A stretch of DNA of 39,249 nt from a virus (Duplodnaviria > Heunggongvirae > Uroviricota > Caudoviricetes), in the IMG/VR virus record IMGVR_UViG_2869936548_000010, positions 1 to 39,249 of that record. One strand, 5' to 3'. Positions 31,884 to 32,872 of this stretch are shown here, piece by piece (the stretch's first letter is position 1; each line of letters opens with the position of its first letter). Below the pieces are notes generated by a model. It was not told where the DNA came from. It worked only from the letters and a program-made list of their open reading frames with translations, and searched no databases. The translations under genes were made by a program, and so were the position numbers.

Positions 31884-32144
31884 TTAGCTGCTGTCTTTTT
31901 TATATAGCTCTTTGAGCGTATCAAAGACAATTTTCTTAACCATATCGGATTGTTGTTCTGCCATACGCTCTGCATCGTCAATGTAAACTGATGCAGAGTT
32001 TTGTTTATCCAGTGATTCTTCAATCGCTGCAATTATCTCTGAGTTCAGCGACCTGTTATTCATCTTCGCACGCTGTTTAATTTTCGCGTGGAGTTCATGC
32101 GGAAGTCTCAAGTGAAACTGCGCCTCGTCGTATTTGCTGTACAT
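31884..32144 (-). CDS. mnt: Mnt-like ribbon-helix-helix repressor
   Basis: Start at ATG 32144 gives 86 aa; C-terminus LVKKIVFDTLKELYKK resembles P22 Mnt LVKKMVFDTLKDLYKK as recalled. Confidence 0.75.
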   Translation of the reverse strand: MYSKYDEAQFHLRLPHELHAKIKQRAKMNNRSLNSEIIAAIEESLDKQNSASVYIDDAERMAEQQSDMVKKIVFDTLKELYKKDSS

Positions 32145-32275
32145 CCTTGATGCCTCACCAGTTGGGTGGAATGGCATCGTAACCTACTGGATAAATACTC
32201 AATAGTACCATTTCGGTATGCAATCACATCATGGTTGCATCATATCATTCGTCTGGAGCAATGAAATGTCAGATA

Positions 32276-32785
32276 TCACCTACCATGATTCTCATGATAA
32301 CCATAGGTCTTTTCAGCCTCACGCCTTACAGCAATTGCATCATCGAGACTCTTAAAGTATCCGAGATTAATGCGCTTCCCTGCGTCGCTAATATATGCCA
32401 CCCACTTTTTATGGGTCTTATGCCATGAAACACCTGCGCACCCAGATGTATTGTTTGTGTATTTAGATTTGTTTTTTAGGTTTTCACCGAGACTAACTAG
32501 ACGCAGGTTGTCTATTGAATTATTTAACCCATTACCATCTTTATGGTCAATTTGCATTCCTGAAGGGATTTCACCATAAAACATTTCCCATATTATCCTA
32601 TGAGCGGCGTATATTTTATCTTGATACCTGATAATTATATAAGATGTTTTCCTGTTCTTGTCCTTGAATATATGTCCTGCAGGCTTTTCTTTAGAGATAT
32701 TGAACATTTTGGGTCTTGAGAGATATTGGTCACTCCAGTACAGGAGTCCATCGTCTTTTAATACGAATACTTCGTTCCAGTTCAT
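32276..32785 (-). CDS. HNH homing-type endonuclease with C-terminal AP2-like DNA-binding domain
   Basis: Start at ATG 32785 with AAGGTGG RBS; HNH motif DHKDGNGLNNSIDNLRLVSLGENLKNKS; AT-rich; occupies the arc/ant position. Confidence 0.75.
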   Translation of the reverse strand: MNWNEVFVLKDDGLLYWSDQYLSRPKMFNISKEKPAGHIFKDKNRKTSYIIIRYQDKIYAAHRIIWEMFYGEIPSGMQIDHKDGNGLNNSIDNLRLVSLGENLKNKSKYTNNTSGCAGVSWHKTHKKWVAYISDAGKRINLGYFKSLDDAIAVRREAEKTYGYHENHGR

Positions 32786-32872
32786 GTTAACCACCTTTAA
32801 ATAAAGTTCACTCATTATACAAAAAACATGCTAGCAATGAATATTGCTTGCTTAACATATAGAGAAATTAAA

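Follow-up and report, generated by a model that had tools for sequence, protein, structure and literature searches.

In phage P22 the interval between genes 16 and 9 holds immunity region I (immI), the 'ant moron', with mnt, arc, sar and ant; versions that hold mnt only were described in 2008 and are documented for ST64T, ST104 and Para1 (PMC2629481). Proteins that combine an HNH nuclease domain with an AP2 domain are a recognised family of homing endonucleases (Magnani et al. 2004; Barth et al. 2023, PMC10448857). Free-standing homing endonuclease genes of the T4 type include mobE (T4 mobE: PMC2790892). Here we describe a P22-like (Lederbergvirus-type) prophage of 39,249 nucleotides, the IMG/VR record IMGVR_UViG_2869936548_000010, which as a whole we call the window. 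Two minus-strand genes lie between its gene 16 homologue and its tailspike gene, namely mnt and an HNH endonuclease gene, and according to the original prediction the endonuclease had taken the place of arc and ant in a remodelled immI. In our judgement, the two genes are probably independent variable features that became neighbours by chance: an mnt-only 'ant moron' and an HNH-AP2 homing cassette that was copied in at codons 5/6 of the tailspike gene.

Alignment with the E. coli W prophage and IME10 places the insertion after codon 5 of the tailspike open reading frame (ORF), 15 nt from its start, in antisense orientation with respect to the late operon; in Sf101 the site is likewise empty. 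The following parts can be told apart.

32281-32890, minus strand: inserted cassette of the HNH1 type, 610 bp, absent from empty sites, with the junctions ACC|TAC... and ...AAT|GCC
32276-32785 (longest ORF 32276-32815), minus strand: HNH-AP2 endonuclease ORF, 169 aa, HNH_3 match at 2e-20
32255-32280, plus strand: remnant of the original tailspike start, with GGAG at 32255-32258 and ATG TCA GAT ATC ACC at 32266-32280, cut off from the gene
32861-32890, plus strand: cassette-borne replacement start, with AGAGA, ATG at 32873 and ACA GAT TCA ATA AAT (MTDSIN)
32873-34589, plus strand: tailspike with head-binding and receptor-binding domains (Pfam Head_binding at 3e-63; PHROG 17420 matches both halves)

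Empty sites read GGAG-N7-ATG TCA GAT ATC ACC GCA AAT GTT GTG, and the standard start of E. coli W, IME10 and Sf101 has GGAGCAATGAAATGTCAGATATCACCGCAAATGTTGTGG. The remnant is colinear with this functional start, and every filled site shows it as ATGTCAGATATCACC or as the variant ATGACAGACATTACC; the stop codon of the HNH gene and 2 nt of its last Arg codon fall within it. At the other end of the cassette, AGAGAAATTAAA-ATG ACA GAT TCA ATA AAT runs in frame into GCC AAT GTT GTG, so that the tailspike restarts at 32873 as MTDSINA. RefSeq tailspike coding sequences at filled sites begin at the ATG equivalent to 32873. Remnant and replacement start thus flank the cassette as two imperfect direct copies of the region where the tailspike starts. 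Since the cassette brings its own copy of the ribosome-binding site and start (MTDSINA for M(S/T)DITA), the tailspike stays expressible. The GC content of the cassette is 33-40%, against 48-52% in the flanks.

The HNH1 cassette was found at 98.0-99.7% identity, and at the same nucleotide, in four left contexts. In the window the left neighbour is mnt only; in strain 81 and NRG857c the cassette lies downstream of the ant terminator of a complete mnt-arc-ant region; in M160133 mnt is accompanied by an extra gene; and in L016 the left side is Sf6-like, with no moron. The left flank in strain 81 is chimeric, with an ant-type leader joined to an mnt-type start, as a short tract of co-conversion would produce. 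Outward from the cassette, identity drops to 91-97% over the next 120 nt and to 86-90% between nt 120 and 330, and the receptor-binding domains show no relationship. On the left of the cassette, the flanks of different prophages are either about 98% identical or unrelated.

Conversely, most of the 80 closest IMG/VR loci have mnt beside the tailspike without HNH, and so do the E. coli W prophage and the phages IME10 and Sf101. The site was found both filled and empty, with precise junctions, in genomes that are otherwise homologous, as is characteristic of a homing endonuclease gene. The claim that arc and ant were replaced by the endonuclease did not hold, since mnt-only sites without HNH are common and the HNH gene belongs to a separate insertion in the tailspike, which also occurs beside an intact mnt-arc-ant. 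HNH1 is single-copy and present in 15 of 5426 complete E. coli genomes. Its ORF is frameshifted in one of the 13 distinct HNH1 loci, the decaying copy in L018 (IMGVR_UViG_2698536687_000008, 3300-3330), where a T6 to T5 deletion truncates HNH1 after the HNH motif at an otherwise identical site.

A second lineage, HNH2, occupies the identical junction. The protein has 166 aa with HNH_3 and AP2 domains and is 42% identical to HNH1 over a 92-aa core. It follows ...ATCACC|TAC in 6 of the 80 Mnt loci and at 21 of the 28 filled-junction IMG/VR sites (the other 7 hold HNH1), and it was found in 15 of the 5426 E. coli genomes. The HNH2 cassette restarts the tailspike as MPEQLYNVVVSQPSQLFTLARSFKANANGK (MPEQLYN), with an N-terminus of standard length and heavy recoding across some 80 nt. 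Kapi1, an isolated temperate phage, has the order mnt-arc-ant-HNH2-tailspike (HNH2 is Kapi1_066), which indicates that the arrangement is compatible with a viable phage.

More distant relatives of HNH1 keep the same neighbour. Homologues with 83% (Enterobacter), 79%, 75% (Salmonella), 66% and 64% identity, some of them metagenomic, all lie divergently beside a Head_binding tailspike in other left contexts; this does not hold for a homologue with 45% identity. In three of these variants (L135, L138 and L139) the linked tailspikes begin with MTDSIT(A/T)N, that is, the standard MTDITAN plus one Ser codon.

The start of the tailspike follows the state of the site. Among the collected loci, more than 80 distinct standard starts had no HNH upstream, MPEQLYN occurred with HNH2 (13 loci), and MTDSINA occurred with HNH1 in 9 loci and without HNH in 7. 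In HK620 (L008, 3497-3535) and in L143, L147, L149, L153 and L164, MTDSINA is joined to the native leader with no HNH. Such starts would be left if the cassette had been deleted by way of the direct repeats that flank it, or if gene conversion had been only partial. Two lineages at one site, together with decayed and apparently 'scarred' alleles, match the usual cycle of invasion, decay and loss.

The encoded enzyme looks functional, judging by its residues and predicted fold. It matches PF13392 (HNH_3) with 72.4 bits at a cut-off of 24.8, the PHROG 99 HNH endonuclease at 2e-59, and I-HmuI at 2e-5 as a single sequence and at 8e-11 with a profile. Residues D80/H81/N89/N93/N102 align with D74/H75/N83/N87/N96 of I-HmuI, of which we take D74, H75, N96 and the structural Asn to be catalytic or metal-binding. 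Across 47 homologues, H62, D80, H81, N89, N93 and N105 never vary, and the conservation of N102 reaches at least 90%. The Pfam AP2 match stays below threshold (22.8 vs 33.3 bits); a profile search finds the AP2 domain of WRI1 at 2.8e-5. In the AlphaFold2 model (mean predicted local distance difference test score 92.7), a C-terminal three-stranded sheet and helix superpose on the AP2 domain of AtERF1 with a root-mean-square deviation of 1.2 A over 48 columns (probability 1.0). Profile and predicted fold thus confirm a C-terminal AP2 domain, and the fold agrees with that of I-HmuI as well. The original prediction was right that the neighbour of mnt is a leftward, AT-rich HNH gene with an AP2-type domain, and the check that it proposed on the catalytic His and Asn found the D-H...N...N residues intact. 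Its nearest homologues in phages, at less than 50% identity, are HNH genes of the T1-like Drexlerviridae.

The signals that may drive the nuclease gene lie at the far end of the cassette.

32791-32797, minus strand: AAGGTGG, the ribosome-binding site of HNH, followed after 5 nt by the ATG at 32785
32814-32841, minus strand: putative HNH promoter, with -35 TTCATT at 32836-32841, a 16-nt spacer and the extended -10 TGTATAAT at 32814-32821 (-10 at 32814-32819, TG at 32820-32821)
32833-32848, no strand: dyad AGCAAT-GAAT-ATTGCT, overlapping the -35 of the HNH promoter

The pattern TTYATT-16/17-TGnTATAAT is kept in four variants of the HNH1 lineage (64-100% aa identity), and the sequence that flanks it is not conserved. 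TTGTATAAT is found upstream of HNH2 too, in a different surrounding sequence, and the HNH2 -10 is encoded opposite the recoded tailspike codons. Transcription from this promoter would run away from the tailspike and oppose that of the late genes, which suggests expression in the prophage or early in infection. The promoter is about 600 bp from the Mnt control region and is kept in contexts without Mnt, so the proposal that Mnt might control the endonuclease found no support.

A dyad of the GCAAT-N4-ATTGC type overlaps the -35 in each variant of the HNH1 lineage (Salmonella, Enterobacter and metagenome; L135, L138 and L139), and its sequence differs from variant to variant. The dyad may act as an operator, for instance in autoregulation mediated by the AP2 domain. 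An RNA hairpin at 32833-32848 was considered and rejected, as its folding energy was no better than that of shuffles (z = -0.02). Separately, the A-run in the promoter spacer (32822-32827) varies from A4 to A7 among otherwise near-identical cassettes (alignment columns 703-708). This changes the spacing of -35 and -10 and could modulate promoter strength.

The other gene of the interval, mnt, comes with a control region of its own.

31884-32144 (longest ORF 31884-32177), minus strand: stand-alone mnt, 86 aa from the M12 start, with Arc and Repressor_Mnt Pfam matches
32145-32224, no strand: mnt control block, kept in all prophages with the window type of Mnt (alignment of 33 distinct intergenic variants)
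32205-32219, no strand: dyad GTACCATTTCGGTAT (TACC-N5-GGTA), a candidate operator for Mnt, near where the conserved block ends
32218-32240, no strand: inverted repeat ATGCAA-N11-TTGCAT

Both Pfam matches score 3e-14, with PF03869 (Arc) at residues 18-59 and PF11423 (Repressor_Mnt) at residues 68-93 of the 97-aa Mnt ORF; among structures, 1MNT is matched at 1e-18 and 1QEY at 2e-8. The architecture is that of an N-terminal Arc-like ribbon-helix-helix followed by a C-terminal Mnt tetramerisation helix. RefSeq uses M12 as the start of identical proteins (WP_000287053.1). The window Mnt is 47.5% identical to that of P22, and the positions of His6/Asn8/Arg10 in P22 Mnt, presumably its operator-recognition contacts, are Gln/His/Arg in the window. 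The gene is divergent from the tailspike and, in the mnt-only layout, lies 121 bp upstream of its start.

That mnt is an orphan was borne out. Three Arc and three Ant proteins (from P22, NRG857c and strain 81) gave no tblastn match in 31795-32872, where sar was not searched for, and the ORF list holds no suitable arc or ant ORF between gene 16 and the tailspike. The best Arc/Ant match anywhere in the window has an E-value of about 0.05 and lies within 12506-13228. The 240-aa product of 12506-13228 (plus strand, nin region) combines a Rha N-terminal domain with an ANT/KilAC domain (PF03374, 8e-33); it is an antirepressor-family protein elsewhere in the prophage, unrelated to P22 Ant.

In the alignment of intergenic variants, conservation runs from the mnt ATG to about 32224, with none beyond. 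The centre of the GTACCATTTCGGTAT dyad is 68 bp from the mnt ATG, compared with 66 bp for P22 Omnt. VSe13, Salmonella L135 and 67 IMG/VR loci share its outer half-sites TACC/GGTA but differ in the central bases; taken alone, its symmetry is weak in a shuffle test. The P22 Omnt sequence (GGTCCACGGTGGACC) and Oarc have no counterpart in the window, so GTACCATTTCGGTAT is a positional analogue only. The original prediction had proposed the repeat at 32218-32240 as the Mnt operator. That repeat is present as described, but we rejected the role assigned to it because of chance expectation and non-conservation. A perfect inverted repeat with 6-bp arms and a loop of at most 20 nt appears in 41% of shuffles of the same 131-bp interval, and the right arm (TTGCAT) lies outside the conserved block and is absent in VSe13, Salmonella L135 and many IMG/VR loci with an identical N-terminal strand of Mnt. 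The repeat is thus probably not the operator, and from the alignment and position we regard the dyad at 32205-32219 as the better candidate. Neither candidate recurs in the window, including near the Rha/ANT-domain gene. No Pmnt or rightward Pant-like promoter could be assigned confidently; positional analogy with P22 yielded only ATGGCA-17-AATACT (8/12), which is not kept in VSe13.

Two further observations concern this region. Sf6 (L010, 2700-2745), which has no mnt, carries GTGCAATGCCGGACAGGTTGCATC upstream of its tailspike, resembling ATGCAATCACATCATGGTTGCATC of the window; hence the TGCAAT...GTTGCAT motif may be an element of the tailspike leader and not of Mnt control. In Salmonella enterica (L135-L137), a full Arc/antirepressor module is accompanied by a second, window-type Mnt (84 aa) with the conserved dyad, beside HNH and tailspike. 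Window-type Mnt may therefore be a separate, tailspike-proximal paralogue and not a leftover of immI.

As regards the role of this repressor, Mnt most likely autoregulates. It would also keep any vestigial Pant-type promoter shut, and such a promoter would point through the cassette at the tailspike. Additionally, it could repress ant of incoming relatives that have the same operator.

For the cassette, we propose the following course of events. The nuclease would nick or cut the standard tailspike start (about ATG-WCA-GAY-ATY-ACC|GCA-AAT-GTT) in P22-like genomes without the cassette, during co-infection or superinfection of a lysogen. Repair from a cassette-bearing genome would then copy the cassette in, with the short remnant and leader as one arm and the conserved codons of the head-binding domain as the other. 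The carrier would be protected from its own nuclease by the split site and the altered codons. In carriers the presumed target is indeed altered: it is split at ACC|GCA and recoded to MTDSINA (HNH1) or MPEQLYN (HNH2), or it has the extra Ser codon (Salmonella, Enterobacter). A bolder version seems possible to us, though it may well be wrong. In it, an HNH-AP2 clade, with two lineages in E. coli and relatives in Salmonella and Enterobacter, has specialised on the first codons of P22-like tailspikes. Cutting relatives that lack the cassette, at the border of the conserved head-binding domain, it would serve the prophage as a weapon against superinfecting kin and drive co-conversion of the linked receptor-binding (host-range) module, and the MTDSINA of HK620 would be an immunity scar.

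Several points weigh against our account of cassette and Mnt. The target of the nuclease is deduced solely from the insertion site, and the fixed junction could be that of one ancient insertion spread by ordinary recombination in the conserved flanks; the shared junction and terminal ...AGG TGA of HNH1 and HNH2 mean that both may descend from a single event. Since MTDSINA without HNH is not uncommon, it could represent an old allele and not a scar of loss. No phage in the phage collection carries HNH1, either at the DNA level or at >60% protein identity. The tailspike of the window is frameshifted at a G8 run (34001-34008; the ORFs end at 34027 and 34589), so the prophage may be defective; L114 and L121, relatives with the same type of tailspike, have G7 at this tract. 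The G8 of the window could reflect an error in sequencing, a true pseudogene or phase variation at a slippage-prone run. The Mnt operator and the promoters were assigned solely by conservation and positional analogy, and a generic promoter and terminator scan of 31700-33000 gave nothing convincing (two weak minus-strand promoter-like matches, fewer than in shuffles, no terminator, and no call of the HNH promoter).

A rival reading is that of a passive passenger, inserted once long ago, perhaps with a nuclease that is now inactive. It would spread between P22-like genomes through ordinary homologous recombination alone, in the conserved leader and head-binding sequences, and would not home at present. 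The exact junction and terminal codons common to HNH1 and HNH2 are compatible with one ancestral event, mosaic P22-like phages are known to exchange sequence at the head-binding domain (PMC2629481), and the cassette is rare, at 15 of 5426 genomes. We nevertheless think this unlikely. Selection on the nuclease is implied by the intact ORF, the invariant catalytic residues and a promoter conserved at 64-100% aa identity. The peak of identity does not extend beyond the cassette, crossovers fall only a few bases from its borders, and only one of the 13 distinct HNH1 loci has a frameshifted ORF. Another rival is a domesticated moron, expressed by the prophage chiefly as a weapon that cuts the tailspike gene of superinfecting relatives and works in defence or exclusion and not as a selfish element. 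A sigma-70-type extended -10 promoter of its own, directed against the late operon, suggests prophage expression, and the interval is one that also hosts sieA and mnt in P22. Such a role does not exclude homing, however, and a portable start with filled/empty polymorphism fits the needs of a mobile cassette, not those of a defence gene; as a full account we find it improbable.

The reading of the original prediction, in which the endonuclease took the place of arc and ant and joined the Mnt regulon, or Mnt governs the tailspike promoter, is in our view very improbable. In its favour, mnt and HNH are neighbours on the same strand, no terminator is predicted to separate them, and the order HNH-then-Mnt recurs in Salmonella L135-L137 and L206. 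The distribution contradicts this reading, given that the same cassette stands beside an intact mnt-arc-ant and in genomes without mnt, while mnt-only sites without HNH are the majority. The junctions are inside the tailspike ORF and not at arc/ant boundaries. Moreover, the Mnt control block is found beyond the HNH stop codon, on its 3' side, and far from the conserved HNH promoter, which makes Mnt control of the nuclease very unlikely. Finally, HNH proteins can act as packaging helpers, partners of the terminase in some cos phages, but nothing specific points to this here. The close relatives IME10, Sf101, HK620 and P22 are viable without HNH, the gene is far from the terminase genes, and the AP2 domain and I-HmuI-like architecture are those of homing enzymes, which leaves the packaging role next to no probability. 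A homing cassette beside an mnt-only moron is thus the explanation we prefer.

The remainder of the prophage gives the setting of this interval.

205-1365: integrase
7426-8160: CI-like repressor
29797-31794, plus strand: gene 16 homologue, a DNA-ejection protein of the P22 gene 16 type (PHROG 770 DNA transfer protein, E-value 1e-238)

The gene 16 homologue, whose product is annotated as P22-gp16 family in near-identical E. coli prophages, closes the late operon and forms the left border of the 'ant moron' interval. After the late operon come the tailspike, the gtrA/gtrB O-antigen glucosylation cluster and a 421-aa gene without a family match. The GtrA/GtrB pair and the 421-aa multi-pass membrane protein (34656-37210, minus strand, 32-35% GC) lie directly downstream of the tailspike; the latter has no Pfam match and is presumed to be a serotype-specific, GtrC-like glucosyltransferase. 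In L121 the tailspike has another frameshift, in a nearby G-run (window position 34131).

These results bear on annotation. An HNH gene beside the tailspike of a P22-like prophage should be read as a mobile cassette and not as part of immunity region I, and the tailspike start belongs at the cassette-borne ATG. Probably site-specific nucleases sit exactly where P22-like phages swap the receptor-binding modules of their tailspikes. If active, they could favour certain tailspike alleles over others in mixed infections and would explain N-terminal variants such as the HK620 start. Kapi1, HK620, IME10 and Sf101 are all culturable, so that direct testing is feasible. The question of what Mnt controls is narrowed to a conserved 80-bp control block with a TACC-N5-GGTA dyad.

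Compared with described systems, the cassette is of a known kind, a free-standing HNH-AP2 homing cassette, and we did not find its target and layout, 15 nt into the tailspike ORF with a portable start, described; a literature search returned no paper on an endonuclease at the tailspike-start site of P22-like phages. With the HNH-AP2 homing endonucleases it shares the order HNH_3-then-AP2, the D-H...N...N residues, a length of about 170 aa and a free-standing, AT-rich gene with its own promoter. Its target and location in the first codons of a P22-like tailspike appear to be new, and no member of its clade is known to have been characterised. I-HmuI differs in being intron-encoded and in having another C-terminal DNA-binding module.

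The seg and mob genes of the T4 type resemble the cassette in their presence/absence polymorphism at a fixed site between conserved genes, a target in the neighbouring conserved gene, co-conversion of short flanks and the existence of decayed copies. Unlike them, the cassette lies inside an ORF, 15 nt from its start and antisense to it. In Aeromonas phage Aeh1, mobE reportedly splits nrdA. In contrast to a split that leaves two functional pieces, the duplicate ribosome-binding site, ATG and altered codons of the cassette restart the tailspike gene. With P22 immI the window shares the interval, the leftward mnt and the spacing of the dyad from the mnt ATG (68 vs 66 bp). It differs in having no arc, ant (sar was outside the search) or P22 operator and in its Mnt, which is 47.5% identical with other recognition residues; immI does not include the HNH cassette. 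A parallel in position exists with homing endonuclease genes at the boundaries of exchanged modules (Barth, Dunham and Seed 2023, PMC10448857). Those were described for ICP1 and other lytic phages. Here too, a nuclease sits at the border between a conserved block, for ejection and head binding, and a hypervariable receptor-binding domain, and we hypothesise that the HNH of the window is linked to tailspike exchange in temperate P22-like phages.

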